DNA of 51,424 bases from a virus. Its lineage: Duplodnaviria; Caudoviricetes. Made by a program: the position numbers and the translations under genes. The stretch is from positions 1 through 51,424 of IMG/VR virus record IMGVR_UViG_3300044878_000243; one strand, 5' to 3'. Shown here one piece after another: positions 1 to 47,149 of the stretch. The notes beneath the pieces are model-generated. The model ran no database searches. It was not told where the DNA came from and was given only the letters and a program-made list of their open reading frames with translations. Numbering within the stretch: position 1 is the first letter of the stretch; the number at the start of each line of letters is the position of its first letter.

Positions 1-170
1 TTTGAATCAGAGTTCAAGCTTGAGAGGCTGGAATGGCTTCCTCGGCTCGATAACGCCTTCATCGGCGAGTACATCCATTTGTTTCGACAGCGCCACCATC
101 TTTTCAATCATGAACTCTGAGTAACCTGGGACAACCTTAGCAACGATATCCTCAGCAGGTTGGTCAGGAT
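1..170. repeat. Terminal overlap (copy 1), indicating a circular contig
   Basis: Identical to 51255-51424 except C43 vs T51297. Confidence 0.95.
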
Positions 171-1356
171 AGTAAGTTATCGCTCCACGCTTCTCACGAC
201 CTGGCTTGATGCCAACATTTACTCCGAACAGCGCCATGATCAACTTGATGATGGCCTCAACGATTTCCATGATCTCCTTGTGCGTCATTACCTTGTCCGT
301 GCCATTCTTCGCCTTCCTTGCTTTTACTCTGAGTCGGAAGACGTTGAATCGCGGTGACTCCGGGACGCAGGTGATGTAGTAGTAGCCTCGGATTGCTCGG
401 AATTTGGTTTGTCCGTATCCATCTCTTTCAGAAAGCGCTTTGTAGCCTCTATGTCGCTTTCCAATCTCAACCTGAAGCTCTTGAAGTCTGGTTTCGTCAT
501 ATCTGATGCCCTCTTGTTGGGTTAGTTTTGAAAATGTCAGCCTAGTGGCCTTGAGAAGACTGCCAGGGATTATCTTGTCATCCAGTTCGTATTTTATCCC
601 AGTAGGCTTGCCTCCCTTATTGTATGTCAGATGGATGTATACATTCTTTTTCCTAAGTAATCGTACCAGATCAAACATGTCACCGTTTTGCTCTTGTACA
701 TATTCAACAGTACCACTTACTATTCCAAGCAACTTGCGCTTAACCGAAAGTTCATCTTTAACTAGGGAGCCATATGCTTCAGCTCTTGTCATGTTCGTAT
801 TCCAAGTTTCAGTTGGTTTCGCTGCCTTAACCAGACCAAACATGTCTTCGATCTCGCTAGCAAGTTCACATGCCTTTAAGTTCTCTCTTTGGGTATTACC
901 GGCCAGATTGTATCCAAGCTCTAACTTAATTCGATTTGCAGTTATATGTATGTGGTGATTGTTTGTGTCAGTGTGTAGCGCCACATAATACTTATTTGTT
1001 TTCAAATTAAATCCAAGTCCAACTAACATATGCTCTGCTGCTTTAGTCCATTGCTCCTGGGTGAGCCTCTCACCCGGCGCCAGCGAGAGGGACATGTGGA
1101 AGACTGGCTTCACCACGCGGCGGTTGCCGAACTCCAGCTCGCGGAGCTTGGTGGCCGTGTCGATCTCGTTGAAGACGTCGTCAGCGGACTTTGAGGTGCC
1201 CTTGACGAGGTCTCCGAACTGCAGAGTGCTGATGCAGTTCGATGTAATAAAGTGAGAGTTGGCCGCCTTGTATGGATGGTCGTGCTGGATACCCATAATG
1301 TAGTAGACCCGGTTTTTTGAGCGACCTGTGTTGCTCTGGTAGATTTTAGGAATCAT
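7..1356 (-). CDS. mobA: MOBP-family relaxase (MobA/VirD2-like)
   Basis: Motif II KPVFHMSLSLAPGE, HUH motif III HTDTNNHHIH, N-terminal Tyr (VYYI); directly downstream of mobC. Confidence 0.9.
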   Translation of the reverse strand: MIPKIYQSNTGRSKNRVYYIMGIQHDHPYKAANSHFITSNCISTLQFGDLVKGTSKSADDVFNEIDTATKLRELEFGNRRVVKPVFHMSLSLAPGERLTQEQWTKAAEHMLVGLGFNLKTNKYYVALHTDTNNHHIHITANRIKLELGYNLAGNTQRENLKACELASEIEDMFGLVKAAKPTETWNTNMTRAEAYGSLVKDELSVKRKLLGIVSGTVEYVQEQNGDMFDLVRLLRKKNVYIHLTYNKGGKPTGIKYELDDKIIPGSLLKATRLTFSKLTQQEGIRYDETRLQELQVEIGKRHRGYKALSERDGYGQTKFRAIRGYYYITCVPESPRFNVFRLRVKARKAKNGTDKVMTHKEIMEIVEAIIKLIMALFGVNVGIKPGREKRGAITYYPDQPAEDIVAKVVPGYSEFMIEKMVALSKQMDVLADEGVIEPRKPFQPLKLEL

Positions 1357-1357
1357 G

Positions 1358-1756
1358 TTATGCGTCCTCCCCTTGGTACTCCAGTGCTTCCATTTCGTCG
1401 TCTGCTTGATTGATTTCGTACTGCCTGATCGATGGCAGAATCTTTTCCTGGATCACGCTCAGATGCCTTCTGATGTCGTCCTTGACCTTACATTCAGGCA
1501 GTGGCCCCATAATGGTTTGCGCCAGGTAGTCGAACTCATTTTGCAACAAGAGCACATCCGGTATTACTAACTTGCGCTGCTTTGGTTGTGCATTGATTAC
1601 GTAGTCCCGGATGAATTCTGCTGAACTTTTAGCGCCAGCTTCGTCCCTCTTACGCTCCAGTATCTCTCTTTCTCTGTCTGATAGTCTCAACATGATGCTC
1701 CCAGTTTTGCGCTCTTTCTGAGCCTTTTTGCCTTCGGTTTCTGTTACTTTTTTCAT
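1358..1756 (-). CDS. mobC: MobC-like ribbon-helix-helix relaxosome accessory protein
   Basis: SIMLRLSDREREILERKRDEAGAKSSAEFIRDYV RHH pattern; stop 1 nt before the relaxase start. Confidence 0.8.
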   Translation of the reverse strand: MKKVTETEGKKAQKERKTGSIMLRLSDREREILERKRDEAGAKSSAEFIRDYVINAQPKQRKLVIPDVLLLQNEFDYLAQTIMGPLPECKVKDDIRRHLSVIQEKILPSIRQYEINQADDEMEALEYQGEDA

Positions 1757-1763
1757 TTTATTT

Positions 1764-1892
1764 ATCCTAGTTATCTTTTTGTTTTTTGCTTATATAACTA
1801 GGATGCCTACGGAGATTCTTCCAGCGCAATACCCGAAGGGTGTGAGCAGTAACATTTTTCACGAGAGTGTATATCACTCTCCCACCTTGCTT
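1764..1892. promoter_or_regulatory. Predicted oriT / mob regulatory region
   Basis: 11-bp inverted repeat 1764-1774/1794-1804 over the mobC RBS; IR GAGAGTG-tatat-CACTCTC (1863-1881) followed by CCACCTTGC, resembling MOBP nic sites. Confidence 0.55.
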
Positions 1893-2433
1893 CCGTATAT
1901 CAACCTCCCTTTTTCTTCACCGGCTTCTACCATAAAGAGCGGTACTAAAAGCACAGTTTGAAGGGTCTAAAAAGGATCTAAAGAGCGTCAAAAGGCTTTG
2001 TTTTCAAGTGTTTTAGTTTGTAAATTGTCGCTTAGACAGTCTGCGACGGATTTAGTATACTTTTTGGTGTTTTAGGCCCGATTTAGAGCCCTCCACGGTC
2101 TCAAAAATGACAGTGTTTTGACCTGAAAATATTTTCATTTAATTGCAAAATAATTTGCGTGAGGATGACTCTGGCCATGAAATCTTTGTTAGCCGTCACC
2201 TGCGGTGCCGAAGAAACGATCTCTCTTGAAGGCTAGGGCCCAGGAGTGGATGAATTTCGTTGTTCAACAGAAATCAGTCGAGGGGATCAGTAGTGGTGAG
2301 TCGGAAACGAGGCATGGAGCTCCCCTGGTCGCCGTATACGACTCAAAAGGGCTTAGAGGTTGGACAGGGAAGGAAGTCTCTTGGAAGAGCAGGAGCGAGG
2401 CCCCAGGAGCTCTTCCAGGATCAGGAAGTCGGC

Positions 2434-2814
2434 TTAGTCGTAGGTGTGGTTGGAAGCGATCAGCATGCAGAATTTGAGTGACGCCAGCATCGACTTGTAA
2501 CGCTCGGCCTCTTTGGAGTAATTGCCATCACACCCGTGACGGTCGATCTCTTTCGAAATAAAGCTAAACATCGAAATTACTGTCGGATGGAAGTCATCCG
2601 TGAACTTTGCCTGCCTGTAGGAGCCTATGCCGCCGTTGAGGAGGCGCGTGGCCTTGTTGGCACTGTTGAGCCTCTCCTTCACTGAGCGTGGCTTACCGGT
2701 CTCCTGGAAGGTGCCCATGTTGCCCTTTGGCTTCTTGCCGAGCACGTGCAGCTTGTAGTGCTCCATCCGGCGCAAAAGATACTTGACCGTAAGTTGATCA
2801 CCGTTCTTGAACAT
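2434..2814 (-). CDS. Hypothetical basic protein
   Basis: 126 aa ORF, ATG preceded by GAGGTG RBS. Confidence 0.7.
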   Translation of the reverse strand: MFKNGDQLTVKYLLRRMEHYKLHVLGKKPKGNMGTFQETGKPRSVKERLNSANKATRLLNGGIGSYRQAKFTDDFHPTVISMFSFISKEIDRHGCDGNYSKEAERYKSMLASLKFCMLIASNHTYD

Positions 2815-3159
2815 CTAAATACACCTCTATTGACATATATTGAGATGTTGTCGAATTTTCACTTAACTGTCAACTCTAATTACTGATGTATTGACATACG
2901 AAGATATTGTCGAACATTGACATGATGGTAGATAACGATCTAATAAAATGAATTGACTTTCTGTATTTAATATTCAATTGACTTTGAAGTTTGCACTTCT
3001 TTTGATTTGTTTTTCTATTTTATTTCTTTATATTTTAGTTTAAAGCTTGTTTTGTATTTAAGTTCCTAAGATCTTCTAAAGCTTCTTAAGCTATTCAAAT
3101 GTCTCATGGCTGGTCAGCCAAGATCCATTTTTACTGCAATACTTGCACTTGCTTTGCAC

Positions 3160-3590
3160 TTTTAATACGCAGATCAGGAGGTTCCGGTTTGTCTTCAGGC
3201 AAACTCGCCCTTACCCAGCTAGCCCCCAGGGGACAAATTAATGTCCTCATCTGGGTGACTGCTGGGTAAGGGCTTTTGATGATTCAGAGATGGGCTTCAG
3301 CTTTTACGCGTGACCTATCGGATCTCGGAATAAATCAGTGGAACGCATGATGTCTTCACCGTTCCTCGCAGGTGCCCGGAATGACATTCCGGATCGTCTA
3401 GACCACCTGCCATCGTTGATGGCTATGCGACCGAGGGTTTCCCCAACGTAGTCGCTCTGCAAATCAACGATCCCTCCCGTCTATGAAGCTTTGACGTACC
3501 TAGTAACCTCCTCACAATCACGACTTCGCAAAGCTAGCGTCTGTATACCGCCCCTCGCTCACCGACCTGGCATTAACCAGATATTGCCAT
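3160..3590. ncRNA. Structured non-coding tract (RNA or ssDNA element)
   Basis: At least four nested stem-loops, including a perfect 13-bp stem 3207-3219/3261-3273; no credible ORF. Confidence 0.5.
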
Positions 3591-3617
3591 TCTGCAAAAG
3601 GTATAACGCCTTGTCAA
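3589..3617 (-). promoter_or_regulatory. Sigma70 promoter firing into the structured tract
   Basis: TTGACA-N17-CAGAAT on the minus strand. Confidence 0.6.
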
Positions 3618-3778
3618 CCCCACCCCTAAAAATATCATTAATTGTCACAATGGCGATAAAAAGGCTTGATTTACAACAAATTGTCGAATTTATGATAAAT
3701 TTCATAAAACTAACTGTTGACAATATCTTTGAAAATATTTTACTATTTCTTCAGTACAACCTTTTTGAGTAAATCAAA

Positions 3779-4390
3779 ATGACCACAACAGAAGAAGTCA
3801 TCGACACCATCGAAACCCCCGTAATCCCTGACGTCCAAGCCATCGACCCTGCGCCAGAGCTCGATTCAGCGACAGCCGAGCCAACCAAACCAGCCAAGCG
3901 TCGTCGCGGTCGCCCACAGGTTGAGCGCCCTGCAGGAATGACAAAAGCTCAATATTACGAGCACCGTAAAAATCTCGACGGCTACGTCAAGGCAATTCTC
4001 TGGATCACGCCGGAGGAGATCGAGCTACTCAAGATCTTCCTGGAGAAGCACAGGGCCTATGGCATACTGAAGAACAAGGCTAACGTCATGCCTCGTCGTG
4101 CTCGCATTACCAAGCCGGATAGTGAGCTGAGGGCCAAGCAGGAGGCGGAGATCGCCGCTGCGAAAGAGCTCCAGATCAAACTGGACGCCGAAGCACTGGA
4201 AGCAGAGCAAGCCTTGGCAGCCCAGGAAGCCTTGGAAGCCGAGCGAGCCGCCGCTGAAGCCATTTCCCTATCTGTCCAACCTGTTGCCTTCTGGGAGCCT
4301 CCAGTGACTCTCCAGGAGCTCCGGGCATTGGAGTACACACCAGACGACGACAGCGCGATCATCACTCTGGTGTCCGAGCAATTGATTTAA
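3779..4390 (+). CDS. Hypothetical protein with AT-hook-like RRRGRP motif and coiled coil
   Basis: 203 aa ORF followed by terminator GCCAGGC-tatt-GCCTGGC-TTTT (4404-4428). Confidence 0.75.
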   Translation: MTTTEEVIDTIETPVIPDVQAIDPAPELDSATAEPTKPAKRRRGRPQVERPAGMTKAQYYEHRKNLDGYVKAILWITPEEIELLKIFLEKHRAYGILKNKANVMPRRARITKPDSELRAKQEAEIAAAKELQIKLDAEALEAEQALAAQEALEAERAAAEAISLSVQPVAFWEPPVTLQELRALEYTPDDDSAIITLVSEQLI

Positions 4391-4494
4391 ATTGACAGTC
4401 AACGCCAGGCTATTGCCTGGCTTTTATTTTGCTCCCAAAAGCCAGGCCTTTTGCTCTCAAACCTAAAGGCAGGTTGGCCAGGAAAGGAAATATC

Positions 4495-5010
4495 ATGAAT
4501 ACCCAGCACGTGCTTGGCGAACTTATCGACATTGCCGAATACCAAGAGAACCACGCAAGGCTAAGGACACATATCGTCATGGATGATTCGCTCTTGGCCT
4601 GTGGTGACGATGACTTCCTTGCATTCAAAGCGGCAGTTCGCCATCACTGGGACGTAAAGATGGAGCTGGAGAGCCTTCTTGATGAGTACCTGGTGCAGTT
4701 TGGGTTCAGATATAAGCTAAAGCACAATCACTTCACAAAACTCCACCCCTGGTTTGAGCCTCCACGGTCAGAGCCAAAGTCTCCAAAAGAACTGCATGCG
4801 CGTGACACGCTGAGGCGGGCTTACCTAAGGTCTTGGGACGAAAGAGCAGACGCAATATCGGCAAGGCACATCGACCGAAACGAAAGAACCCAGGCAGAAT
4901 ACAAATATCGTCGGGCCGAATTTCGAGCAATAAGCCGAGAGTGTGAACGCAGGTTCGGCTACTTTAGGGAGTTTTTTATGTTTGCAGACGAAGCAAGGGC
5001 CTCGCGATGA
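4495..5010 (+). CDS. Hypothetical protein
   Basis: ATG 4495 after AGGAAA; ATGA overlap with the next gene. Confidence 0.7.
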   Translation: MNTQHVLGELIDIAEYQENHARLRTHIVMDDSLLACGDDDFLAFKAAVRHHWDVKMELESLLDEYLVQFGFRYKLKHNHFTKLHPWFEPPRSEPKSPKELHARDTLRRAYLRSWDERADAISARHIDRNERTQAEYKYRRAEFRAISRECERRFGYFREFFMFADEARASR

Positions 5011-5990
5011 AGCAGGTCAAGAAATCGGTATTCAACATGTACTCCAGCATGCTTGCGAGCACGCTAAAAAACATCAGCAGGAAGCTTGGGCCCAAGGTCA
5101 ACGCCCTCCATCACATCGGGCACTTTATCGCCAAAAGTCCGGAGGTATCGAGCTCCATAGGGCTTGAGGTGTCGATTTACACAGAAGAGCACTACTGGGC
5201 ACGCAACGGTCGCAACGTGATCTTCCCTGAGTCGATCTCAGTGATCGAGAATCTTATGCGAGCGAAGTATGAGATCGATGACACCGAGGGCTTTACCCTG
5301 CCATTCCTGTCTTTCGCCGTGGCCATGCCAGCCGGTGTAACCAGCAACGGCTATCGAGTCCCTGGGTTCCTTGCCTCCCTCTCCCCTACCGAGCATGCCG
5401 AAGAAAAGCTTCATCCGTTCATCGAGAGCATCAATCTTGATCGTTCGATGTACCAGGCCGTCAACAGGGTCGCGGGACGAGTTCTTGTTGTTCAATACAA
5501 GAACCCAACTGACGGAAGCCATGGCAAGATGGGCGTTGAGGAAAAAGACCTTCCTCGTCTCCTGAGGTGTCGTACTGTTGCTGAATATTCGGCAGAGATG
5601 CGTGAGTACACCGGACTGCTCGCAAGCAACACCGTGAGCACCGAGGAGGACATGGCAATCCAGTTTTACGCGCTGAAGCTGGTAGCAGCAATCGGCGTTT
5701 ACAATATGGCCACTGACGGCAAGCGACTCATTGACGGCTTTCCTGGTGCCTCCATACCAAAGTTAATGGGGCACGATGGATCGAGTGGCTTGCGACTCAG
5801 CACGCTCCAAAACGTCGCTCAGGCGACCAAGGGAAGTCCGGAAAGCCATTACCGCACCTGGCACTTCCGGCATCTCAGGGCACCCTGCTACTACCGTGGC
5901 CAATACGCCGATGTGCCGCAGGGGTCGAGGTATGTGTTTGTATCTGATGCCGTTGTGGGGCAGACCATCGACCCGTCGACCGTTCATTAA
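5007..5990 (+). CDS. Hypothetical protein, possibly distant AcrVA2/FinQ-like family
   Basis: 327 aa; C-terminal SPESHYRTWHFR..VFVSDAVVG resembles the PHxRRGHW..W.P..V motif; family call is tentative. Confidence 0.5.
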   Translation: MKQVKKSVFNMYSSMLASTLKNISRKLGPKVNALHHIGHFIAKSPEVSSSIGLEVSIYTEEHYWARNGRNVIFPESISVIENLMRAKYEIDDTEGFTLPFLSFAVAMPAGVTSNGYRVPGFLASLSPTEHAEEKLHPFIESINLDRSMYQAVNRVAGRVLVVQYKNPTDGSHGKMGVEEKDLPRLLRCRTVAEYSAEMREYTGLLASNTVSTEEDMAIQFYALKLVAAIGVYNMATDGKRLIDGFPGASIPKLMGHDGSSGLRLSTLQNVAQATKGSPESHYRTWHFRHLRAPCYYRGQYADVPQGSRYVFVSDAVVGQTIDPSTVH

Positions 5991-6082
5991 TCAATAATTA
6001 TCAATTATTAATCATGGATTAATAATTATTGATCCATGATTAACAATCAGTAATCAACAATCAACAATTAATAATCAACAAG
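5987..6082. repeat. AT-rich heptamer array A (AATCAAY/AATCATG), putative centromere
   Basis: Near-palindrome AATCATGGATTAATAATTATTGATCCATGATT at 6010-6041 plus tandem AATCAAC. Confidence 0.7.
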
Positions 6083-6091
6083 GATTAGATA

Positions 6092-6415
6092 ATGACAGAC
6101 CACCAAGAAAGCTTGCTCATGATGACTCGCGAAGATGCCTCCCTCCGGGTTCAAGAGCTCATTAATAATCAGCGTGAGAAACAAGAAGGAGCGAACAAGG
6201 AAATCACGCTAGGTAGTCTGTCCGTCGAAGATCAGTCGCGCTGGGTAACCCACATGATTAATCAGATCGCAGCGAACAAGATATTGGGCACGCCTAACAC
6301 CCCAAAGCAAAACGAGTTCGAGGAACATATGAATCGGATCATTCGGGAAAAGAAGGGTGAAGAAAACAGCAATCATGGGTTGTTGCTTGTTGATTACTGC
6401 ATTGTTGATTGTTGA
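6092..6415 (+). CDS. Hypothetical protein between inverted heptamer arrays
   Basis: 107 aa, AAGGA RBS; C-terminus runs into array B. Confidence 0.6.
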   Translation: MTDHQESLLMMTREDASLRVQELINNQREKQEGANKEITLGSLSVEDQSRWVTHMINQIAANKILGTPNTPKQNEFEEHMNRIIREKKGEENSNHGLLLVDYCIVDC

Positions 6416-6460
6416 TTGTTAATCATGGATCAATAATTGTTGATCCATGATTATTAATTC
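6371..6460. repeat. Heptamer array B, an inverted copy of array A
   Basis: GTTGATT tandem plus near-palindrome AATCATGGATCAATAATTGTTGATCCATGATT at 6421-6452. Confidence 0.7.
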
Positions 6461-6797
6461 AGGCACGTGGGTTGCCGAAGTCAGCGATCATGCAGATCTG
6501 CATCAAGATGCCACTACGGCGCTCATGACGCTCAAGCAAGGCATCCAGGTCATCAAGCTCAACGCGCCTCGGCTTGTGGCCCTCAATCGCCCTGGAAAGG
6601 ATCTGGTGCACCCGGCGCAACACGATGAACCGAAAATCGTAATCGTCACCACGCGATTTCTTGATGAATTCAACTGCCTGGCTGTACGGCATGTCATAAC
6701 CTGAGCCACGAAGGATCTCAGCGGAGTATTCGACTGCCCAGCCGTCACGCATCTCTTTCGTCATTTCATCAAGACTCATTTCGTTAATGCTACTCAT
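6459..6797 (-). CDS. Hypothetical protein
   Basis: 112 aa, GGAGGT RBS. Confidence 0.7.
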   Translation of the reverse strand: MSSINEMSLDEMTKEMRDGWAVEYSAEILRGSGYDMPYSQAVEFIKKSRGDDYDFRFIVLRRVHQILSRAIEGHKPRRVELDDLDALLERHERRSGILMQICMIADFGNPRA

Positions 6798-38190: not shown

Positions 38191-40417
38191 TCGGCATTAC
38201 TCCAAGTTGCGATAGTTGGGCAACCATTCCCTGGATTTGCAGGAGAATCTGTTGTGTTTCAGCTTGAATCTTTTCAGCGCTAGCAGTCTTAACTTCCGAC
38301 TCTGCCTGCGACTTTTGTGCCTGCGCCTGCATTTGAGCCTGCTGAGCCTGACCCTGGGCCTCGGCGTCCTTGGCTTGCTGCTCTTGCTGCTCAGCCATTT
38401 TTGCTTTCAAAGCGTCTTCGTCTGGGATCAGGCCAGGCAGATCAAGCGACTCGGCAACCGAGCGAAGCAGGCGTGCGCGGCCTTCCATACCAATGATTTG
38501 CATGTCGAGGTCATTGGCCGTTCCAACCAGGAATTGCTGACGTGCCTGCTGGGTTTGGTCGCGGAGCAGTTGGGCCGTGGCGCCTTTGGGGATGACCTTG
38601 CAGTCGCCCTTGATGCTGACGTCGTCGCTGTATTTCATGTTGTGCAACCAGAGCGAGTAGATCACACGGCGGGTCACACCACGGTCGATGTGGCGTATGG
38701 CGTCTTTGATGCCTTTGTTGGCAGACTCAAAGAGCATGGACAAGCCGCCCATTGTGCTGCCGGCGCCGCCAGCCTGGGCATTACCGTAGGCATACCGTGG
38801 AATACCGGTTGCGTCGTCACTCCTGGACTCCCATTTGTCGTACACGCCCATGAGTTCGCCGGCGTTGGACTGTGGTTGAAAGAACTCCACGACAGGTCTG
38901 GTTGAGCCGGTGCCACTGCGGTCGGTCTGCACTTTCCAGCGCTTGTACGGATAGATTTCATTCGGGTTTTCATCACGAGCCAGGCGGTCTGTCGCCACAA
39001 CGAATTGCGGGCCGCTCGAGAAGGCCATGTTGTTGATCTGTGCGCGTGCAGTGGCGCAGCAAACGTCCTGGATGTCGGCCATCAGCTCGGGGATCGACAT
39101 ACCCCAAAATGAGCCTGGGATCAGCTGGAACGAGGCCTTATGGTACGGACGCGACCCCATAGGATTCTTGTTGATTACGCAACGAATCACGTGCTGACCG
39201 ATCAAGATGGCGTCGATTTCGTACTCGCCGAGCGGGTCGGTGATCTGCTCTGCACTCAAGCCCCACTGCAGCAACATCAGGCCCTGGGCGCCGCCCCAAT
39301 AATGGATGCCTTCAATGGTCTGGCCAGAGTTGTTGAGCCATTCGCTTTGTTTGTCCTCAAGCCTTGCACGCTCGTTGTCGCTGGCCAGCCAGTCGCGCAA
39401 GCCGCCCCGGCCATACGCCTCGAGCACTGCTTCAACAGCCTCGGTCTTGTATCCTGGCACACCTCGCAGGCGGTTCAGCGAAGCGCGGGTGTAGCGCTCC
39501 CTTTCCATGATGTACGAGCCGTTGTCGACGTCAGTGGCATCTGGAGATGGATAGATGTCGAATGGCGATACCCGGTCGAACATCGGCTTGATGGCCTCAA
39601 CCTCAGTTGGCTGCCAGCCATCTTGCCAGGCGAGTTCGGTGACCTTTTGCAACATCGGGCCACGGATAAACGCTGCCGGGAAGATGCAGAAGTCGTCGAT
39701 GAACTCTTCGAGGCACTCGTACCAGCCGCCTTCCGTCAATTGATCGTCAATTACCTTTTCGTGGCGATCTGCGACCTGGCGAGCCTTTTCCTGAACCAAA
39801 GCCCTGATCTTGGCAATCGCGGCCTCCTCGTCAATCTGAGTCGGGTTTGCAACCAAACTGCCATTGCCGGCAACAGGAAGCTGAGGTTGGCCAGGGGAAG
39901 GAATCTGCTGACCTTGTTGCGGATCGACACCTTCCTGAGGCTGAGCCTGGGCTGCTTGAGCCGCCTGCATCTTCTGGAACTTCTCGTCCTCCTCGGCCTG
40001 CATCTTCAGCACAAATGCCTGGACGAGCGCGGGTGGGATGTCGGCCACGGGCGTTGGGTCTAGGCCCCATGGGCGGCCAAGTGCTGGCATAAGAACATCA
40101 CGAATCCAGGCAGCGGCTGCGCGGGTTTTGGTCGTGGTGATCTTCGGGTAGATGGTGGTGCCACCCTCCTCCGCGATGGTGCGCAGTTTGTCGTCATCGT
40201 AGACGCCTTTGTGTCTGCGCTGGCAGTCCAGCAGCCGGCGTTCAATCGGCTCCTTGGCAACCTTGGCGTCACTGAAACACCGGCGAATGTGCGATGCCAG
40301 AGAGCTTTCGACGAGAGCAGTTTGCCTTGCAAGGTCGGATTCCTGGCGTGCTGCTTGATCCTCAGCGTGCAGGTCGCTAGCTGATTTGTATTGTAGTAGA
40401 CCCAGGCCCATTGCCAT
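38087..40417 (-). CDS. Portal protein
   Basis: 776 aa after terminase; RVSPFDIYP, GSFWG..I, ATGIP..G, Q/A-rich barrel. Confidence 0.85.
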   Translation of the reverse strand: MAMGLGLLQYKSASDLHAEDQAARQESDLARQTALVESSLASHIRRCFSDAKVAKEPIERRLLDCQRRHKGVYDDDKLRTIAEEGGTTIYPKITTTKTRAAAAWIRDVLMPALGRPWGLDPTPVADIPPALVQAFVLKMQAEEDEKFQKMQAAQAAQAQPQEGVDPQQGQQIPSPGQPQLPVAGNGSLVANPTQIDEEAAIAKIRALVQEKARQVADRHEKVIDDQLTEGGWYECLEEFIDDFCIFPAAFIRGPMLQKVTELAWQDGWQPTEVEAIKPMFDRVSPFDIYPSPDATDVDNGSYIMERERYTRASLNRLRGVPGYKTEAVEAVLEAYGRGGLRDWLASDNERARLEDKQSEWLNNSGQTIEGIHYWGGAQGLMLLQWGLSAEQITDPLGEYEIDAILIGQHVIRCVINKNPMGSRPYHKASFQLIPGSFWGMSIPELMADIQDVCCATARAQINNMAFSSGPQFVVATDRLARDENPNEIYPYKRWKVQTDRSGTGSTRPVVEFFQPQSNAGELMGVYDKWESRSDDATGIPRYAYGNAQAGGAGSTMGGLSMLFESANKGIKDAIRHIDRGVTRRVIYSLWLHNMKYSDDVSIKGDCKVIPKGATAQLLRDQTQQARQQFLVGTANDLDMQIIGMEGRARLLRSVAESLDLPGLIPDEDALKAKMAEQQEQQAKDAEAQGQAQQAQMQAQAQKSQAESEVKTASAEKIQAETQQILLQIQGMVAQLSQLGVMPNAGLNPGADQGLGAPGVQQQPGMAGIQEPAQQYA

Positions 40418-40771: not shown

Positions 40772-42420
40772 GTATGTGCGCCCCAACGGCCTCTGCCGCG
40801 TTGTGTATTTTGCTGTTTGGTGTTTGGTGCAAACGAATTATTCAGTTCGAAAAGACCACTTCTTGCCAGGGTTTCGAACCCTTTTACACCGTGGGATGCC
40901 CAGTCATGACGTGGGGTGTCCTTAAACACGCCAAGTTTCTCGTCCCATTCTTTACGATAGCTATCGAGACAATCAACCAGTCTGTCGACCGTTACGATCT
41001 TTCCTACACCCGGAACTGGTGGAGCCTTAACCTCTGCAAAGTAGCACTTCGGAAGGAATTGCCTGACCGCCTCGATACCTTCCGCAAGCTTGCTAATGCG
41101 CGGAACGAGTTCAAATTTGATCCCAAAAGTCGCCGCAGTGTCGAATCGAGACATGCCAGTACCCAACTCTCTAACAGCCAAGTCGTGTGGGCCATAGTGA
41201 GCCCCGTATACGTATTTCTTTTCACTAAGCTTCTCGGCGTAGTGCGCAAGGCCATATCCGGATGCCTCGTAATAATCGATGACATGAACTTCTCGACCAA
41301 CGATCTGAGCAAAGACGATGGACGTGGCGTCTGACATTCCCAAATCCCAACCGGTGATGACTGGGAGTGCAGGGTTGTATTTCACCTTTGGAGTGATTCG
41401 TCCATTCTCGCGGAGCCAGGTCATCTCGGTGGCGTAGTAGGCCCCCTCGATGTTTTGCTCAAACGCTTCTTCAGGCGTAGTCGGGTATTCCCGCTTCATG
41501 TCGTCGCCAAGCGTCTTGTCTTTCATGGCGTACCAGGCCTGTTGCTCCTTTGTAAGATCAACGCCCCACTTGGCTTTTACCTGACGGAAATATTCGTGCA
41601 GACGGCTTGGGATTTCGACTTCAGCGGCATCCAGGCGGTAGCTTGGCTCTTCGTACCAAGGGAAAAAGTGAAACTTCCACTCCATCTCGGATGGCGCCTT
41701 GCCCATCTCCTTCATCTTTTTGGCGTCGTCACAGTATGTGAAAAAGTACCCTTCTCGACCCTCTGCAGTTGACTCCAAAGTCACTTGGCCGCCGAGGCCA
41801 ACTGCTTCAAACGCACCAGTTACAATCTCTTTCGCCTTTTCCGGGTACTTCTTGCAGATCTTCCCAAATTCGGAAACATGGAGGCGCTGAAGTGTGCCAC
41901 CACGGTAACTTGTGGACACGCGGATTGACGATCCGTTGTCAAACACATAGCTGTCACCCTTGTCGTTCGCAGGGATCGGCATTCTCAGGCCAATCTCCAT
42001 GAAGATCGCCTGCCACTGAGCACTTTGACGCAGTTGATCGTAAGCGAACTTGACTTTATTCCTGAAAATATCCTGGGCGTCAACTAAGGTGTGGGCAATA
42101 CAACCAGCCGAGAAGTTTGGTGTCCAAAGGACGTCGTCTAAGGCGTCAATCATCTCAAAGGTCGTGAAGCCAAGTTGTCTCGCCTTCAAGATTATATCTC
42201 GATTATGGCGATCAACAAATCGCTGACGCTGCTGAATATTCGGCTTAAATGTCTTGACCAGGCCCTCTTTGATCTTGATTTTGTATAAGGCATTCAAGCG
42301 ATACCACTTGTTGCCGAGTGCCCGGATCAAGTCTGCACGCGCAGTGAGTTTCCTGGCTTTATGCAAGGCCAGGTAGGCTTCTCCTTCTTTGAGGATCTGG
42401 TAGCGCGTCTTATCGGTCAC
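40768..42420 (-). CDS. terL: Terminase large subunit
   Basis: ILKARQLGFTT, LHVSE, ESTAEG, WDLG..D, HDWASH. Confidence 0.95.
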   Translation of the reverse strand: MTDKTRYQILKEGEAYLALHKARKLTARADLIRALGNKWYRLNALYKIKIKEGLVKTFKPNIQQRQRFVDRHNRDIILKARQLGFTTFEMIDALDDVLWTPNFSAGCIAHTLVDAQDIFRNKVKFAYDQLRQSAQWQAIFMEIGLRMPIPANDKGDSYVFDNGSSIRVSTSYRGGTLQRLHVSEFGKICKKYPEKAKEIVTGAFEAVGLGGQVTLESTAEGREGYFFTYCDDAKKMKEMGKAPSEMEWKFHFFPWYEEPSYRLDAAEVEIPSRLHEYFRQVKAKWGVDLTKEQQAWYAMKDKTLGDDMKREYPTTPEEAFEQNIEGAYYATEMTWLRENGRITPKVKYNPALPVITGWDLGMSDATSIVFAQIVGREVHVIDYYEASGYGLAHYAEKLSEKKYVYGAHYGPHDLAVRELGTGMSRFDTAATFGIKFELVPRISKLAEGIEAVRQFLPKCYFAEVKAPPVPGVGKIVTVDRLVDCLDSYRKEWDEKLGVFKDTPRHDWASHGVKGFETLARSGLFELNNSFAPNTKQQNTQRGRGRWGAHT

Positions 42421-42935
42421 TCTTCGTCGACCTCGGCCATCAAGTCCGCCAATGAACGGCCTGCTTCTGACTTGTTCTCGGCGTCCATGTTGTAGGCCTG
42501 GCGCTCACCCTTAATAACCTTGAGAGTTGCGTCAATACCTGCGTTAAGCGACTTCGAATAGTCGCTGTGGTTATCTTCGTCGACGTCGATCAGCGCCAGG
42601 GCGTCGTGCAACTTTGTAGACAAAGTCCTCCACTGCCGCAAAGCCTTACGGTGGTTCATGACAATTGACGCGGCTTCTTCAGCGGCGTCTTCGATGATCT
42701 CGGCTTCGGTCTTGTCCTTGCCGGCCAGGGTCACTGGAGTGCCATTGAGCTTCGAGTTGGTCGACTGGCGCACCTGCTCGGTGAGGTCGCGGTTGATGCC
42801 GTGACGCTTGCAATGATTCCGAATCGCGGTGTCACTGATGCCGTGGCGCTCAGCGATAGTGCGGATGGACAAAGACCCGGCGCGGTACTCAGCCTCGATC
42901 TTTTCCCAGTCCGGTTTTGGGTATACGAGTGTCAT
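42417..42935 (-). CDS. terS: Terminase small subunit
   Basis: PDWEKIEAEYRAGSLSIRTIAERHGISDTAIR HTH; directly upstream of terL. Confidence 0.8.
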   Translation of the reverse strand: MTLVYPKPDWEKIEAEYRAGSLSIRTIAERHGISDTAIRNHCKRHGINRDLTEQVRQSTNSKLNGTPVTLAGKDKTEAEIIEDAAEEAASIVMNHRKALRQWRTLSTKLHDALALIDVDEDNHSDYSKSLNAGIDATLKVIKGERQAYNMDAENKSEAGRSLADLMAEVDEE

Positions 42936-43381
42936 TTGGCCTCCTTCGGCTTCATCAGGCAAACCTGCGTTACATAGGCCTGCAGTCCAGCCAGCTGAGA
43001 TTCTTTCTCGATTATTGAGGCTCTGAGATCGTGATAATCCTGTCGAGCTGATTCAGCGAGCTCGGCGTCTCCACCATCAGCCAGGCGGGGGGCTGAGGTG
43101 GGGTTTGACACAGAGGGGCATGTTGCTTTGATGCGCAGCCGCTTGCTACCAGAGGCAACAGCATCGCGAAGAGTGTCGTTTTCCAGCCGCGCATGAAGGA
43201 GATCCTTTGCATATTGAGAGTCAATGGCATCACGGGCATCCATCGCCTGGGCAACCTGAGCAGCCTTGGCTTCGTAGTCAAAAACCTTTGCTACCAAATC
43301 AGCCCTCTCAGAGCGGAGGTTGTCCAGGTAAGGAATCATCAGGGCCACAGCAAGGGCCAAGGCAATTGTCAGATATTTCAT
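42932..43381 (-). CDS. rz: i-spanin (Rz)
   Basis: N-terminal TM, coiled coil, SG.KRLRIKATC, LQAYV. Confidence 0.88.
   Translation of the reverse strand: MKYLTIALALAVALMIPYLDNLRSERADLVAKVFDYEAKAAQVAQAMDARDAIDSQYAKDLLHARLENDTLRDAVASGSKRLRIKATCPSVSNPTSAPRLADGGDAELAESARQDYHDLRASIIEKESQLAGLQAYVTQVCLMKPKEAK
43012..43194 (-). CDS. rz1: o-spanin (Rz1) embedded in Rz
   Basis: Lipobox VASGC, PPQPPAWLM, AAGGA RBS. Confidence 0.85.
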   Translation of the reverse strand: MRGWKTTLFAMLLPLVASGCASKQHAPLCQTPPQPPAWLMVETPSSLNQLDRIITISEPQ

Positions 43382-43941
43382 GCCTTGAGCTCCAAGTCAT
43401 GGCGTGCGCCACCTGCCCGACGACGCCCAAGCGTGCGGTCATCGTCATTGAAGGCGATCTTCTTGGGAGCAGGATTGAGACCTTGCTCACACAATGCGCG
43501 CTCTTTAGCACGACGCTTGACGAGACCCGAGAAGATGCGATCACCGGCATACACCCAGCGGCTCAGCTGAGCGCAGGCACCCTTGAAATCCCTGGCATTC
43601 AGCATCTTCAGCATCGTAGAACTGGAGAAGTTGCCGACCCCAGCGTTGTATGTGAACGAAGTCATGGCGGCCTCGATATGAGGATCCAATTCGACTTTGA
43701 GTACGGATCGAACGCCCTTGTTTGCTATCAAAAGATCTCCCCTGAGGAGTAGTTCGCAACGCTCAACAGTGCTGACTCGACCAACGATTGCGCCCGCTGT
43801 GTGGCCGTAGCACTCAGTCGGGATTCTTATCGGGTCGTAGTAGCCGGTGAGTGCCAGGCCCTCGGATTCCTTGACGACTGGCTCTGCAAGGGTGATGGCA
43901 GCGATAATGGCGAGAGTGGTGGCTTTAGTCCGGTTGTCCAT
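43378..43941 (-). CDS. GH24 lysozyme (likely SAR endolysin)
   Basis: E-x8-D-x5-T triad (EGLALTGYYDPIRIPT), CYGHT, hydrophobic N-terminus. Confidence 0.92.
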   Translation of the reverse strand: MDNRTKATTLAIIAAITLAEPVVKESEGLALTGYYDPIRIPTECYGHTAGAIVGRVSTVERCELLLRGDLLIANKGVRSVLKVELDPHIEAAMTSFTYNAGVGNFSSSTMLKMLNARDFKGACAQLSRWVYAGDRIFSGLVKRRAKERALCEQGLNPAPKKIAFNDDDRTLGRRRAGGARHDLELKA

Positions 43942-44176
43942 TCTCGGACTCCCTCAATGCAGCAGCCACCTGGGCAGCGGCGACCTTGGCTTCACGGCGG
44001 TCTTTGCGCCAGATGAAGTAAGCCTGAAATACGATGTAGATGATCGTGGCAATTGGCACAAGATCAGTGGTGGTGAGGCCAGAGATGACCGCACCGGTTG
44101 CAACAACAGGAGGCGCCGAGCGCACGAATTCCACCAGCGAATTTGCATTGTCTTGAATGTAACTGGCGATGGACAC
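43925..44176 (-). CDS. Holin (T7 gp17.5-like class II)
   Basis: GTG start after AAGGA; APPVV...ATIIYIVFQ TM segments; basic tail. Confidence 0.75.
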   Translation of the reverse strand: MSIASYIQDNANSLVEFVRSAPPVVATGAVISGLTTTDLVPIATIIYIVFQAYFIWRKDRREAKVAAAQVAAALRESENGQPD

Positions 44177-44340
44177 GTCGGCGATTCCTTGAAAAAGGTG
44201 CCAGGACTGAACCCGGCGTGTGTGACCCACGTCTCACGACGTTGGTGCGTCTACGTCTCACGACGTTGTTTAGATTCGGTGGCCATTGCCCAAGGCCAAA
44301 GGCATTAGCAAAGCTACAAGGGTGGCCACCGAAAACTCAT

Positions 44341-44429
44341 AAAAAAACCCCGCCGAAGCGAGGTTCCTTTGTTCTGAGCGGTAAAACCGCAATATGACTT
44401 AATATATCTATTTCATGGCGACACGTCAA
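44341..44429 (-). promoter_or_regulatory. pR'-like late promoter with immediate terminator
   Basis: TTGACG-N17-TATATT (44401-44429), then hairpin CCTCGC-TTCG-GCGGGG plus U-tract (44341-44364). Confidence 0.7.
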
Positions 44430-44436
44430 TACACGA

Positions 44437-44823
44437 TTATTTCATTGATCTCAAAATCGTGGCTTCATTGATTCCGTCGTTAATGGACAGAACAATAGAT
44501 GCATAATCAGTATCGTCCAATTTCAGGCCGTCGTGAGGGTACTTCCGGATGTGCTCGATAGCACGCTCCATTGTCTTGAGCTCGGCATAGAGGCCAATGG
44601 TGACGGAGACCATTTCACGAGGATCTCGGCCAGGCACATCCTTAGCCTTTGTCATCTCGTAAGCGCGATCAATATTGAATGCAAACGATGTCTGTTGCGA
44701 TATCGCTCGGATGACAGCCTGGGCATCAAGGGCCTTTTGCATGTCGCCAAAGGAGAGATATGCAGGCTTTTCATTTTGATTGATGACGATATTGAAGGCG
44801 GTGTTTCTGAAGAACTCGAGCAT
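44437..44823 (-). CDS. Hypothetical protein
   Basis: ATG after AAGGG. Confidence 0.7.
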   Translation of the reverse strand: MLEFFRNTAFNIVINQNEKPAYLSFGDMQKALDAQAVIRAISQQTSFAFNIDRAYEMTKAKDVPGRDPREMVSVTIGLYAELKTMERAIEHIRKYPHDGLKLDDTDYASIVLSINDGINEATILRSMK

Positions 44824-44833
44824 ATCAATACCC

Positions 44834-45085
44834 TTAAGCAGGACATTCCTGTCTGGAAAGCACATTCATCTTATCAATGAACAGCCAATCGATTTCTTTG
44901 GCGATGTCGTCAATTGTGACGCCGCCGATGTCGTCGGCAAACTCTGGGCTTGCTTGCATGAGGTCGACGATGCGGCCAACGGTAGCGGTCTGAACGGCGG
45001 CCTTGGCTTGGGCCAGGGTAATGTCGGACTGAGTGCAGATGGTGTCGATTTCTTCACGGATCGCGGTGCGAACGTCTTTGTGCAT
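44834..45085 (-). CDS. Hypothetical protein
   Basis: Packed in the operon. Confidence 0.6.
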   Translation of the reverse strand: MHKDVRTAIREEIDTICTQSDITLAQAKAAVQTATVGRIVDLMQASPEFADDIGGVTIDDIAKEIDWLFIDKMNVLSRQECPA

Positions 45086-45097
45086 GACAATTTCCAA

Positions 45098-45421
45098 TTA
45101 ATATTTGATATCAGTCAATTCGATGTACGCGGCGTCGTAAGCATCACGCGCATTGCGAAACGCCGGGAACGGATAGGCTGATGGGTTTGCGATGATCTCA
45201 AGCTTAAGCGCCTCAAGACGACTCATCTCGGCCAGCAACTCACGGGCTCTGGTAACGATCTCGCTCTCACGATCCGAGATGATGCCCGTGGCGTCTGGGA
45301 GCAAAGCCCCGAGGTAAGCATGGGCTTCGCGGACGCCGTGCGAGGCTTTTAGTGCAGTAATAGCAGAACCGTCTGATAGATTGTCCCAAATGCAGACGTT
45401 TGGCAAACTGTCAATACTCAT
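45098..45421 (-). CDS. Hypothetical protein
   Basis: ATGA-coupled to the upstream gene. Confidence 0.7.
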   Translation of the reverse strand: MSIDSLPNVCIWDNLSDGSAITALKASHGVREAHAYLGALLPDATGIISDRESEIVTRARELLAEMSRLEALKLEIIANPSAYPFPAFRNARDAYDAAYIELTDIKY

Positions 45422-45870
45422 AGAATCCCATTGGAAAGATCGAACATTTTCAGCATCGCGGCGCCGGCTTCGTCCTGCACTGCAAGACGCTCAACATCGC
45501 TGTATTTGCTGGCATTATATCGCATATCTTCGAGTCGTCTATCGACTTCGGCCATCTCAAAAAACACGTCTTTTGCCTTGGATTCGAACACCAGGAAGCC
45601 TTGCAAAGCTACCCGGCGCCACTGGACAGCTTTTGGAAGCAAAGCGATGCATTTGGCGGCAAAATCTTTGTCATCAAAATAGTCGATGAACTCAGCGCGG
45701 ATCTGCTCGGCCTCACGCTTCTGCAACGGATCTTTGCCAAGGAGTGGCCTGCCACCCAGGGTAGCGGCCTTGGCCTTGAAGCCAATCACAGGGTCTTGTG
45801 CTTGCGAATCCATCGTCACCCCAAAGGTCAGAGCAGGCCCGAGTATTTCTCTTGCCTTGGAATATAACAT
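45418..45870 (-). CDS. Hypothetical protein
   Basis: AAGGA RBS; promoter TTGCAC-N17-TAATAT at 45897-45925. Confidence 0.75.
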   Translation of the reverse strand: MLYSKAREILGPALTFGVTMDSQAQDPVIGFKAKAATLGGRPLLGKDPLQKREAEQIRAEFIDYFDDKDFAAKCIALLPKAVQWRRVALQGFLVFESKAKDVFFEMAEVDRRLEDMRYNASKYSDVERLAVQDEAGAAMLKMFDLSNGIL

Positions 45871-45943
45871 GACTGGTTCCTTGGCGTTGATGACCGATAT
45901 TACACTCTGACTTTCGGGTGTGCAACAATTTATGCTAATTTAC

Positions 45944-46372
45944 TCAATCATCCCGAAGCTCTGATCGACGAATCCAGTCGCAGCCGGTGTATATGATTAT
46001 GTCGTCTTCGTCGACCCTGACGCAGTTGTCTATTGCCTGGCCGAAAAATATGTTTGTACCCAAACCGGCTTTGGCATATTCGTAAAACATGTCGCCATCC
46101 GAGGACTTGACTGTATTCATGGAGATCTGTTTGCCAAGGATGCTGGAAACGGTATGGAAACCGTATTCTGTTACGAATTGGCTTGTAAGGAAGGCGATGA
46201 AGGCGTGGGCCCTGGTGCTCCTGGCATATATCTCACGGTTGTCCGCAAAAGAGTATATGCCGGTGCATGGCTCGAGTTGGATGGCTTTGATGTCTGGGAT
46301 GATCTCACCTAGAGCGTAACCTTCGGCCACTGCATTTTTGAGGATTTCGGTAATCTGTTGATATGCGTTCAT
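45944..46372 (-). CDS. Hypothetical protein
   Basis: 142 aa, AGGAAA RBS, own AT-rich upstream region. Confidence 0.75.
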   Translation of the reverse strand: MNAYQQITEILKNAVAEGYALGEIIPDIKAIQLEPCTGIYSFADNREIYARSTRAHAFIAFLTSQFVTEYGFHTVSSILGKQISMNTVKSSDGDMFYEYAKAGLGTNIFFGQAIDNCVRVDEDDIIIYTGCDWIRRSELRDD

Positions 46373-46540
46373 TTGTGCTTTCCTATTATTGTTCTTATTG
46401 CTTTAGTTTGTATTATCACAAATGAGAAAAGCCTGCGTCAACAGGCTTTCAGTTAATATAAGAAATATATTTAAGTCTATTTCGAGAACATTATGTGCGA
46501 ACATTTTTATTCGCTCAGGATATTCTTATTACTTGATGAG

Positions 46541-47023
46541 TTATAAAAGACGCGTATAAACCCTACATGTGAATTGTGGGTCGCGCTTAATGATATCAGT
46601 TGCGAATCGTTCTCGGATGTATTTGAAGAATGATGGGGCCATCTTTACCGAGGCCGGGCCGTCATAATCAACTGCACTCAGGATGGCAGAGTCGGCAACC
46701 TTGATGGCTTCCTTGAAAAGCTGTTTGCCGCCAATAACAAAGATGCCGGTGAAGTCCTTGTAGGCCGCCAAGGCTGCGTCCAGTGATTTGTGGACGTCGG
46801 CACCATCGAACTGGGCCTTGGGCTTGGATGAGATCACGACGTTCGTGCGCCCTGGCAGAGGCCCCCTCAGCGACTCCCAGGTCTTGCGACCCATGATTAC
46901 AACTGCCCCCTGGGTAACCTGCTTGAAAAGCCTCAGCTCCTCAGGGATGCGCCACGGCAGAGCGCCTTTGAGGCCGATTTGGCCGCGAGTACCATGTGCA
47001 GCGATGACGCAGATATTGTTCAT
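46541..47023 (-). CDS. dfr: Dihydrofolate reductase
   Basis: IG..G.LPW.IPEE...FK, VIMGRKTWESL.GPLPGR.N.V, FVIGG. Confidence 0.93.
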   Translation of the reverse strand: MNNICVIAAHGTRGQIGLKGALPWRIPEELRLFKQVTQGAVVIMGRKTWESLRGPLPGRTNVVISSKPKAQFDGADVHKSLDAALAAYKDFTGIFVIGGKQLFKEAIKVADSAILSAVDYDGPASVKMAPSFFKYIRERFATDIIKRDPQFTCRVYTRLL

Positions 47024-47149
47024 GTCAAGCCTAAAGCCAGAGGTTGGACAGGGAAAGGAGTTGGTGATGCTTCCTTTCTGGAGGCTTGTCAATTTACACG
47101 AAAACACTGGTGAATGGCAGGGCGTGAAAAAGGCCCCGCAGGGCCTGGT

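Follow-up and report, generated by a model that had tools for sequence, protein, structure and literature searches.

Dispersed asymmetric words, among them stoperators, the operators of phage P1, T7 promoters and nick sites, are some of the few genome-wide signals of phages, and each of them has revealed a mechanism. The phage-plasmid P1 carries dispersed asymmetric C1 operators of ∼17 bp, roughly one per 5 kb, which overlap promoters. Stoperators, as far as the cited account covers them, are asymmetric 13-mers that occur at over 20 places; their orientation follows transcription and flipping inactivates them (PMC9283540), and they may require contact between repressor and polymerase (PMC9283540). 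Localized nicks form another such class. The portion of the cited work that deals with phage tf describes 14 nicks, which fall within a 9-nt word and all affect the same strand, with similar word positions in four related phages (PMC3517423); the same portion gives a 20-nt bipartite nick consensus on the non-coding strand for the phiKMV group and, in 2012, described the localized nicks of T5 as being of unknown function (PMC3517423). For MOBP relaxases, the nick consensus is given in the relevant part of the source as YATCCTG/Y (the slash marking the nick), an RP4 oligonucleotide contains CTATCCTG (PMC3772185), and the nick-core specificity survives very low relaxase identity (PMC3772185). The present analysis concerns a dispersed word, AGGTTGGHCAG with a purine tail, in the IMG/VR virus record IMGVR_UViG_3300044878_000243 (Duplodnaviria; Caudoviricetes), the whole of which (51,424 nt) is referred to here as the window, or W. 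The element is phage-plasmid-like, since family scans found a podovirus-type virion and lysis block together with a relaxase, ParA, Rep and other plasmid-type genes.

The motif and its copies in the window

The pattern AGGTTGGHCAG matched the window 12 times, corresponding to 11 unique copies, as the match at 51411 duplicates that at 157 through an overlap of the record's ends. Positions 51255–51424 repeat 1–170 with one mismatch (C/T at position 43), and a contig of the likely source run crosses the junction and carries the T. Because of this 170-bp overlap and the contig reading through it, the genome was treated as circular or circularly permuted, with a unique length of 51254 bp; IMG/VR labels the record linear despite the overlap. 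The original prediction, made from the sequence by eye, had placed the copies on the + strand at 157, 2357, 4471, 19702, 30101, 34157, 39884 and 47041 and on the − strand at 4282, 14555 and 35633, with near matches at 10927 and 24839, and all of these coordinates were found to be right, the two near matches being as described. Its chance expectation of ∼0.07 copies was upheld by dinucleotide shuffles (mean 0.07, maximum 1, n = 100), and with one mismatch allowed 25 matches were observed against 2.43 expected (maximum 8). Over 56 gene calls, a codon-preserving shuffle that kept the proteins and the per-gene codon use, with the 4 intergenic copies fixed, gave 4.45 copies on average and at most 8, never reaching the 11 observed in 500 shuffles; among coding copies, 7 were observed against ∼0.45 expected under the synonymous-codon shuffle.

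A weight matrix added near matches at 9005, 11155 (−), 19652 (−), 38003 and 43317. At a matrix score > 17, there were 16 sites in W, 12 in G001 and 10 in G002 (38 in all), the latter two being the motif-bearing relatives described below. The full site derived from these spans ∼22 nt, (G)AGGTTGG-H-CAGG followed by a purine run and then T. It is asymmetric and consists of a 12-nt invariant block and a loosely spaced purine run, in the order invariant AGGT, T and GG; A, C or T at position 8 (G in 0/38 sites); CAGG; eight mostly purine positions, of which 15 and 18 never hold a pyrimidine; and T at position 21. Position −1 is G in 27 of the 38 sites and never T, and no conservation was detected beyond the ∼22-nt span of the aligned sites. 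The purine tail that had been expected at most copies is clear in 8 of the 11 exact ones, partial in 157, degenerate or partial in 30101 and absent in 35633, and it is displaced by one base in 34157, 39884 and 47041.

The 81-nt surroundings of the 11 copies folded no better than shuffles (z −1.67 to +1.75) and had no common hairpin. The motif is described as a cis-acting, DNA-level signal of ∼22 nt, read as plain sequence and not as a hairpin; the signal is real, statistically robust and evolutionarily conserved. As a separate observation, a complement of at least 6 nt to the site's own purine tail lies within 45 nt downstream at 9/38 sites and upstream at 1/38 (3.1 expected, permutation P 0.002), a weak hint of local hairpin potential. 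The copies, including four exact ones in intergenic positions, are as follows.

157–178, + strand: exact core within the 3′ end of the relaxase gene and antisense to it (gene frame TYYPDQP); same position in G001 (38968) and G002 (10880)
2357–2378, + strand: exact core with a high score, upstream of the NikA-like/relaxase operon in a gap of 680 bp; the tail is followed by an 8-bp inverted repeat (GGAAGAGC ... GCTCTTCC)
4261–4282, − strand: exact core, antisense inside the + strand gene 3779–4390 (ISLSVQP)
4471–4492, + strand: exact core, sense, between a predicted terminator (4404–4421) and an ATG at 4495, with the purine tail at the ribosome-binding-site position; a low-coverage relative (second sediment run, X2) diverges just before 4471 and retains the variant AGGTTGACCAGG there
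9005–9026, + strand: near match (AGGTTAAACAGG...), antisense, at the junction of the − strand genes 9008–9241 and ssb (8531–8977)
10927–10948, + strand: near match (CAA for CAG), sense inside rep; same position in G001 (28988) and G002 (19332)
11134–11155, − strand: near match (GA for GG), antisense inside rep
14534–14555, − strand: exact core with a high score, antisense in the + strand gene 14199–14669 (TSLPVQP), a gene backed by synteny with G001 and G002
19631–19652, − strand: weak near match, sense in the polyvalent-protein gene, 50 bp from copy 19702 and divergent from it
19702–19723, + strand: exact core with the highest score, at residue 380 of the polyvalent-protein gene (TSSPDQP) and antisense to it
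24839–24860, + strand: near match (GA for GG), antisense in gene 24187–25140
30101–30122, + strand: exact core with a weak tail, antisense in the tail-fibre-like gene 29458–30783
34157–34178, + strand: exact core with the tail shifted by −1, in a 53-bp gap between the − strand genes 34186–34752 and 30878–34132
35612–35633, − strand: core only, no purine tail, sense in gene 35407–35874; may be a chance or decayed site
38003–38024, + strand: near match (AGGTCGG) with a full tail, antisense in gene 37945–38190; same position in G001 (1313)
39884–39905, + strand: exact core inside the portal gene and antisense to it (IPSPGQP); G001 (47856) and G002 (2259) also have a copy in that part of the gene
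43317–43338, + strand: near match (GT in place of GG) at the 5′ end of the Rz-like spanin gene, to which it is antisense, some 350 bp upstream of terS; same position in G001 (44241) and G002 (5904)
47041–47062, + strand: exact core, its tail displaced by +1; it separates the + strand open reading frame 47114–47509 from the dihydrofolate-reductase gene (−), whose 5′ end faces it
51411–51424, + strand: shortened duplicate of copy 157, a product of the 170-bp contig end overlap and not an independent copy

The copies had been predicted to oppose local transcription for the most part, and on the gene calls made here 9/11 exact copies, and 14/18 when near matches are counted, are indeed antisense to the local gene in W; this, however, is inseparable from their lying mostly on one strand (8/11 exact copies on +). 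At score > 17, the one-strand bias is 11/16 in W, 12/12 in G001 and 7/10 in G002, the favoured strand being non-coding for most genes. The one-strand set of G001 includes 3–4 sites that are thereby sense in oppositely oriented (minus-strand) genes, and the rep-internal site is sense in all three genomes. Across the three, the same-strand rule fits 30/38 sites and the antisense rule ∼26/38, several of the sites being orthologous and not independent; the two rules cannot be separated on these data. A spacing of often 4–5 kb, also predicted, was loosely true, but even spacing was significant only in G001 at the lenient threshold (coefficient of variation 0.31, P ∼1e-4), was lost at stricter thresholds and was not significant in W. 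In a consensus scan of 1–15200 and 43000–51424, none of 32 predicted sigma-70-like promoters overlapped a site, and no −10-like element was seen in or after the motif.

Relatives and lineage specificity

No close DNA relative was returned by megablast when each half of the window was compared with 50,697 phage records. A locus search with the single portal likewise gave no relatives, and a 26-sequence portal alignment then gave 80 loci. The motif was found in two of these portal-related loci, L041 (4 matrix hits above 20) and L025 (3 such hits), and in none of the other 78. As whole records these are G001, of 49374 bp and with a 127-bp assembly overlap, and the fragment G002, of 29213 bp; each holds 7 exact cores. 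Their proteins are 30–60% identical to those of W (relaxase 34–35%, Rep 30%, ParA 50–52%, portal 59–60%), and sites occupy the same place in two or all three of the genomes at the relaxase 3′ end, the portal insertion, rep, the spanin 5′ end and gene 37945. The homology of the relaxase to W stops just beyond its motif site. The portal gene (38087–40417, −) encodes at residues ∼150–200 a Pro/Gln-rich insertion of ∼50 residues that 24 of 26 aligned portals do not have; it is common only to P0021, in which the peptide reads MPSPDQP, and it houses copy 39884. Between W and its relatives, the 22-mer is 72% identical and the 60-nt flanks are 59–61% identical under gapped global alignment, a figure given without a random baseline. 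The retention of the motif at the same gene positions despite 30–60% protein identity, together with the codon-preserving null, bears out the predicted DNA-level signal under selection across the whole replicon.

The closest portals (G003 and G004; 64–65% identity, 60–62% G+C) come from records without the motif and without plasmid-type genes, both records being incomplete. Searching with a relaxase alignment gave no match in the species genome collection, and in IMG/VR only G001 and G002. A strict pattern scan of IMG/VR returned 9 single hits, and a looser pattern at least 116 stretches; apart from that of G001 (3 sites), two of these carried two matrix sites, neither showing the expected kinship. 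Six two-site stretches from the species and metagenome collections had no match to any W protein, and the nearest plasmid relaxase homologues (27–29% identical) had no motif-like or YATCCTGY site nearby. The motif is specific to the lineage of W, G001 and G002.

A host word (for uptake, Chi-like or a repeat), or a by-product of a repeated peptide x-S-x-P-[DVG]-Q-P or of codon usage, is very improbable as an explanation, and this reading is close to refuted. Five antisense W copies do have a reading frame in common, in which they encode P-x-Q-P peptides of disordered linkers, and in GC-rich relatives the complementary word CTGGCCAACCT often arises from Leu-Ala-Asn-Leu codons. The peptide is nevertheless taken as the by-product, because every copy has the same bases at synonymous positions (CCT ... 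CAA CCT) and four of the exact copies lie between genes; the observed count was also beyond the reach of the codon-preserving null. The 12-mer core occurs in at most 35 copies per 6.5 Mb genome among 401 sampled Gammaproteobacteria, compared with 9 in 51 kb here. The 21-nt pattern gave 57 stretches with single hits in a collection of 185,579 species, for which a uniform model expects ∼70, and 88 stretches with one hit each in metagenomes. In GC-rich genomes the hits lacked the tail and were for the most part the codon-driven word that has C at position 8. No density comparable to that of W was thus found in the 401 Gammaproteobacteria or the species collection, as the original prediction implied for a word that is not the host's; this test covered sampled genomes, and the real host perhaps lies outside the sample.

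Other branches of the portal family hold words of their own. One branch (L056, L065, L066, L070, L073, L074 and L085) has GCYGTGARGC in sense orientation, often just upstream of ribosome-binding sites and also in a cluster of 4–5 copies (for example, in L070 at 5223, 6938–7089, 12476 and 13477). In this word a GTGA loop is flanked by the covarying positions 3 and 8 (C going with G, and T with A); the pattern hints at a small RNA hairpin of GNRA type, comparable to boxB or to a start-associated sequence. Two arrays were considered and rejected as dispersed homologues of the motif, namely, a tandem “AGGTGG...” array of 9-bp period in G003, taken as coding, and a clustered non-coding AGGTGGGGCC(AG) array with 12- or 23–24-bp spacing in L038–L040 (1136–1305) and L059 (2190–2246). 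The latter lies ∼9 kb upstream of the portal in GC-rich relatives and looks like an origin or iterons. A de novo hunt for dispersed words in the 22-kb relatives was swamped by GC-rich codon words.

Gene content and candidate readers

The genes of the window on which the following argument draws are listed below.

7–1356, − strand: MOBP-type relaxase of the MobA/VirD2 superfamily (PF03432, E 2.3e-19, above cut-off; HUH three-histidine motif HTDTNNHHIH); best NCBIfam match TraI/MobA(P), below the family cut-off; nearest plasmid homologue typed MOBP
1358–1756, − strand: small gene lying upstream of the relaxase; its matches to NikA/MobC/ribbon-helix-helix families are weak and all fall below curated cut-offs; possibly a relaxosome accessory protein
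5007–5990, + strand: gp5007, 327 residues, no Pfam or PHROG match; 51–52% identical in G001 and G002
6921–7205: small gene after parA, a candidate ParA partner by position alone, no family match
7198–7857: ParA (family scan)
8084–8476, − strand: protein of 130 residues with a SutA-like RNA-polymerase-binding segment (PF20661, E 2.5e-9, above cut-off) and a C-terminal helix-turn-helix
8531–8977: SSB (family scan)
9551–9856, + strand: XRE/HTH_3 regulator upstream of rep (family scans)
9993–11531: winged-helix Rep-like protein (family scan)
12348–13851: DUF559-like nuclease and SbcD-like exonuclease (family scans)
12348–12728, + strand: the DUF559/Vsr-like small nuclease, 54–60% identical in G001 and G002
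15013–20859: polyvalent protein of 1948 residues with InPase and LPD38 domains (family scan)
Minus strand: podovirus-type virion and lysis block with internal virion protein, tail fibres, capsid, SU10-type portal, large terminase subunit (TerL), small terminase subunit (TerS), spanin and lysozyme
42417–42962, − strand: TerS
46541–47107, − strand: dihydrofolate reductase in the early region (PHROG 316, E 5e-42), present in G002 too

With ParA, Rep and the XRE protein among its predicted products, the element looks temperate and plasmid-borne. Portal relatives were named from Pseudomonas, Stutzerimonas, Halomonas/Vreelandella and Marinobacter, and the closest portal of a cultured phage is merely 38% identical to that of W.

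The simplest reading is that the motif is read by a protein encoded in the non-structural part of the lineage. Since such a reader should be common to W, G001 and G002, the products of 3779, 2434 and 4495 were ruled out; none of the three genes had a tblastn match at E ≤ 1e-5 in G001 or G002, and the first two, which had been predicted as possible readers, are therefore unlikely in that role, as is the third. The remaining candidates, proposed from family matches and conservation, are the relaxase and its small neighbour, the 8084–8476 protein, the XRE protein at 9551–9856, the DUF559 nuclease and TerS. The presence of this XRE/HTH_3 protein also means that the earlier statement of no evident CI was not quite right. 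In the 8084–8476 protein, the helix AGV(T/S)(K/R)NY is retained in G001 and G002. The joining of a SutA-type segment to a resolvase/HTH_23-like helix-turn-helix is an unusual pairing for a phage regulator. TerS is 54–55% identical in G001 and G002 and 28–38% in 31 motif-less relatives, whose TerL, portal and capsid are as close or closer; it is the only structural-module protein clearly closer to G001 and G002 than to the motif-less relatives.

gp5007, the most conserved W protein of no assigned function, was considered and rejected as reader or nickase. Its AlphaFold model (pLDDT 81.5) resembles the anti-CRISPR AcrVA2 (7ci2; E 3e-4, TM ∼0.4), and a homologue of 29% identity occurs in an 85-kb phage without the motif; only 23 homologues were found in a set of 5.8 billion proteins. 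One gp5007 homologue, P0127, is on the same 53.7-kb contig as the portal P0021.

The window also has repeats of other kinds. AT-rich repeats of 7-bp period (ATTATTAATCATGGAT-like) at 5982–6080, 6364–6473 and 7866–7966 flank the par genes, with a fourth cluster at 14899–14930, 7 kb away, and probably constitute a partition centromere that is itself partly dispersed. Three 22-bp direct repeats (CCCCTTCGGAAAACGTCCTGAA-like) with exact 22-bp spacing lie inside rep at 10714–10797 and look like replication iterons within the initiator gene. The motif itself was rejected as iteron or partition centromere, being neither clustered nor similar to these repeats, and the W site list has no replichore-type switch of orientation around the iterons. 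Mosaic recombination junctions were rejected as well, since tblastx boundaries gave no support beyond variable linkers. Apart from these, a perfect 15-nt inverted pair, ATATTACACTCTGAC, at 45897–45911 and 48925–48939, 3 kb apart, possibly represents operator sites, and three near-identical GC hairpins (49032–49049, 50469–50486 and 51225–51242) resemble terminators that have been reused between early genes.

Possible mechanisms and comparison with known systems

The motif copies may mark places where one DNA strand would be nicked during late replication or packaging, that is, they may be strand-specific nicking sites like the “localized single-strand interruptions” of phiKMV, tf and T5. This proposal, drawn by analogy, is tentative, and we infer alike the cutting itself, the strand cut, the enzyme and the purpose of the nicks. 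There is a slight lean to nick sites over stoperators because no copy lies at a predicted promoter, the placement is intragenic and G001 follows a strict one-strand rule; the temperate, plasmid-like gene set and the two flipped W copies pull towards stoperators. The most concrete candidate nickase would be the element's own MOBP-type relaxase, with the small Vsr/DUF559-like nuclease as an alternative. Acting on border-like sites, a relaxase would give the genome of a tailed phage nicks specific to one strand, or single-stranded segments resembling T-strands. Read on the opposite strand, each strong site has YYCCTG ahead of the invariant block (general consensus YYCCTG/D), and copy 157 reads CTATCCTG/A, which fits the MOBP nick-core word; the copy in the relaxase gene reads YATCCTG in all three genomes, as against 2/35 other sites. 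One motif shared by genomes with relaxases merely 35% identical also fits, because nick-core specificity outlasts low identity. Even so, going by sequence likeness, the relaxase is an unlikely nicking enzyme, and it is doubtful to the same degree that a phage-plasmid applies its own MOBP relaxase to a dozen or more border-like sites instead of one oriT.

Several observations weigh against nicking, by the relaxase in particular. The full YATCCTG core of MOBP sites is present in only 5/38 sites, and the base after CCTG is C in 0/38, whereas the MOBP consensus has C or T; ∼1 CAGGATAG is expected by chance among the 38 sites from the spacer composition. The best-conserved block lies on a side of the putative nick that relaxases usually leave unread. 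No inverted repeat is shared by the relaxase-proximal site of the three genomes, and only copy 2357 has one, of 8 bp. Two of the strongest W copies (4282 and 14555) are on the other strand, unlike the sites of tf and T5, and the known nicked phages are virulent whereas W looks temperate and plasmid-borne. As to the alternative enzyme, the DUF559 homologues among the 40 records listed of 142 are in Acinetobacter, Vibrio, Ralstonia, Bordetella and Aeromonas phages and not in the known nicked phages.

Ranking near-equal to nick sites, and likewise possible without being probable, are stoperator-like roadblock or regulatory sites, at each of which a DNA-binding protein of the lineage would have an orientation-dependent effect on RNA polymerase; in this version, the ∼35 kb lytic block would be kept quiet in the plasmid-prophage state, with the 8084–8476 protein as candidate reader or, alternatively, the XRE protein. 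The sites are asymmetric, dispersed and many per genome, they are largely antisense in W, where both strong minus-strand copies (4282 and 14555) lie in plus-strand genes, and the temperate-looking element encodes a protein that has both a polymerase-binding segment and a helix-turn-helix, the recognition helix of the latter being conserved across W, G001 and G002. The protein-binding part of the original prediction therefore stands, a lineage-encoded reader being simplest, but its stoperator part is weakened, because none of the 32 predicted promoters in the scanned regions has an operator copy of the kind seen in phage L5, the one-strand rule fits as well, and most sites are inside genes rather than in intergenic gaps. 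All 12 G001 sites lie on one strand even though 3–4 are then sense in minus-strand genes, the copy inside rep runs sense in each of the three genomes, avoidance in mRNA of the two Shine-Dalgarno-like words of the motif could by itself account for the antisense bias, and a tail shift of ±1 is awkward for a two-headed duplex binder. The candidate repressors, moreover, are 30–43% identical between W and G001/G002, and repressors that far apart rarely retain one operator. Stoperator-type silencing outside actinobacteriophages, through a fusion of a SutA-like segment with a helix-turn-helix, is as open as the relaxase acting on border-like sites.

Packaging or genome organisation is less likely still. 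Here, pac-like sites read by TerS or an architectural protein would start or guide headful packaging or DNA condensation from places spread round the genome in one orientation, and it is true that TerS tracks the motif, that a positionally conserved copy lies ∼350–400 bp upstream of terS in all three genomes, and that a one-strand bias, with even spacing in G001 at the lenient threshold, suits a directional process. The TerS pattern, however, may only mark a recombination boundary at terL/terS, the whole left-hand block (spanin, early and plasmid genes) being alike, the even spacing goes at stricter thresholds and is absent in W, and we know of no phage with a dozen selected pac sites. It is also improbable that the copies serve as promoters of a polymerase or sigma factor particular to the phage, or as places where synthesis of the complementary strand is primed after single-strand transfer. 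Promoters of single-subunit polymerases are contiguous and have a purine-rich run at the end, as does the contiguous ∼22-nt site; W 4471 and G001 34417 stand directly before start codons, the tail serving as ribosome-binding site, and a relaxase implies single-strand transfer. Most copies, on the other hand, point against genes and have no −10-like element or flank conservation, no RNA polymerase, sigma factor or primase was recognized among the 64 different open reading frame translations scanned, and the sites have no hairpin like those of known single-strand initiation signals. The probability left over after the named readings belongs to something not yet thought of.

The motif sits in an uncultured gammaproteobacterial phage-plasmid lineage that combines a podovirus-type virion module with a relaxase, ParA, Rep and anti-defence genes, and it provides a direct handle on a mostly unannotated gene set. 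Selection has been strong enough to hold the word inside essential genes, the portal carrying it in an extra disordered insertion. If the relaxase were to nick at these sites, an enzyme class would be named for the unexplained nicks of phages and a link made to HUH relaxase chemistry; if the sites were roadblocks, stoperator-type control would be extended to a new phylum and a new type of protein.

Among the systems described, the nick sites of phiKMV/phikF77, tf/LUZ24 and T5 share with the W motif, as far as the accounts of them go, a short asymmetric consensus in several to 14 copies and similar positions in relatives. Their sites are on one DNA strand, the non-coding one in the phiKMV group, whereas W has two strong copies on the other strand. 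Those phages are virulent, have terminal repeats, and their nicks have been shown physically, whereas W is plasmid-like, and the words are unrelated. The stoperators of Cluster A mycobacteriophages (L5 gp71, the TipsytheTRex repressor), on the part of the literature available for them, are likewise asymmetric and genome-wide in a temperate phage. Their orientation is tied to transcription; for the motif sites, the same-strand rule fits about as well as the antisense one. They differ in being 13-mers in short intergenic gaps, with an operator at the early promoter and actinobacterial hosts, while the W sites are of 22 nt, mostly intragenic and at no predicted promoter of the scanned regions; family scans of the W proteins gave only the XRE and SutA-RBD/HTH hits, no search having been aimed at gp71-type repressors.

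With the oriT of MOBP systems (RP4 TraI, VirD2), to the extent that the sources describe it, the element has in common a MOBP-like relaxase with a NikA-like neighbour, a fixed CCTG on the opposite strand and YATCCTG at the relaxase-proximal site. An oriT of this type occurs once, with C or T following the nick and an inverted repeat on its 5′ side, whereas W has a dozen copies, a repeat only at 2357 and never C, and its strongest conservation lies 3′ of the putative nick. The C1 operators of P1 offer the likeness of a scattered asymmetric site in a phage-plasmid, with the difference that no W site lies at a predicted promoter in the scanned regions. A dispersed asymmetric phage word is thus a known kind of signal, of which the W motif is an instance that differs from each known type in sequence, length, host group and gene context.

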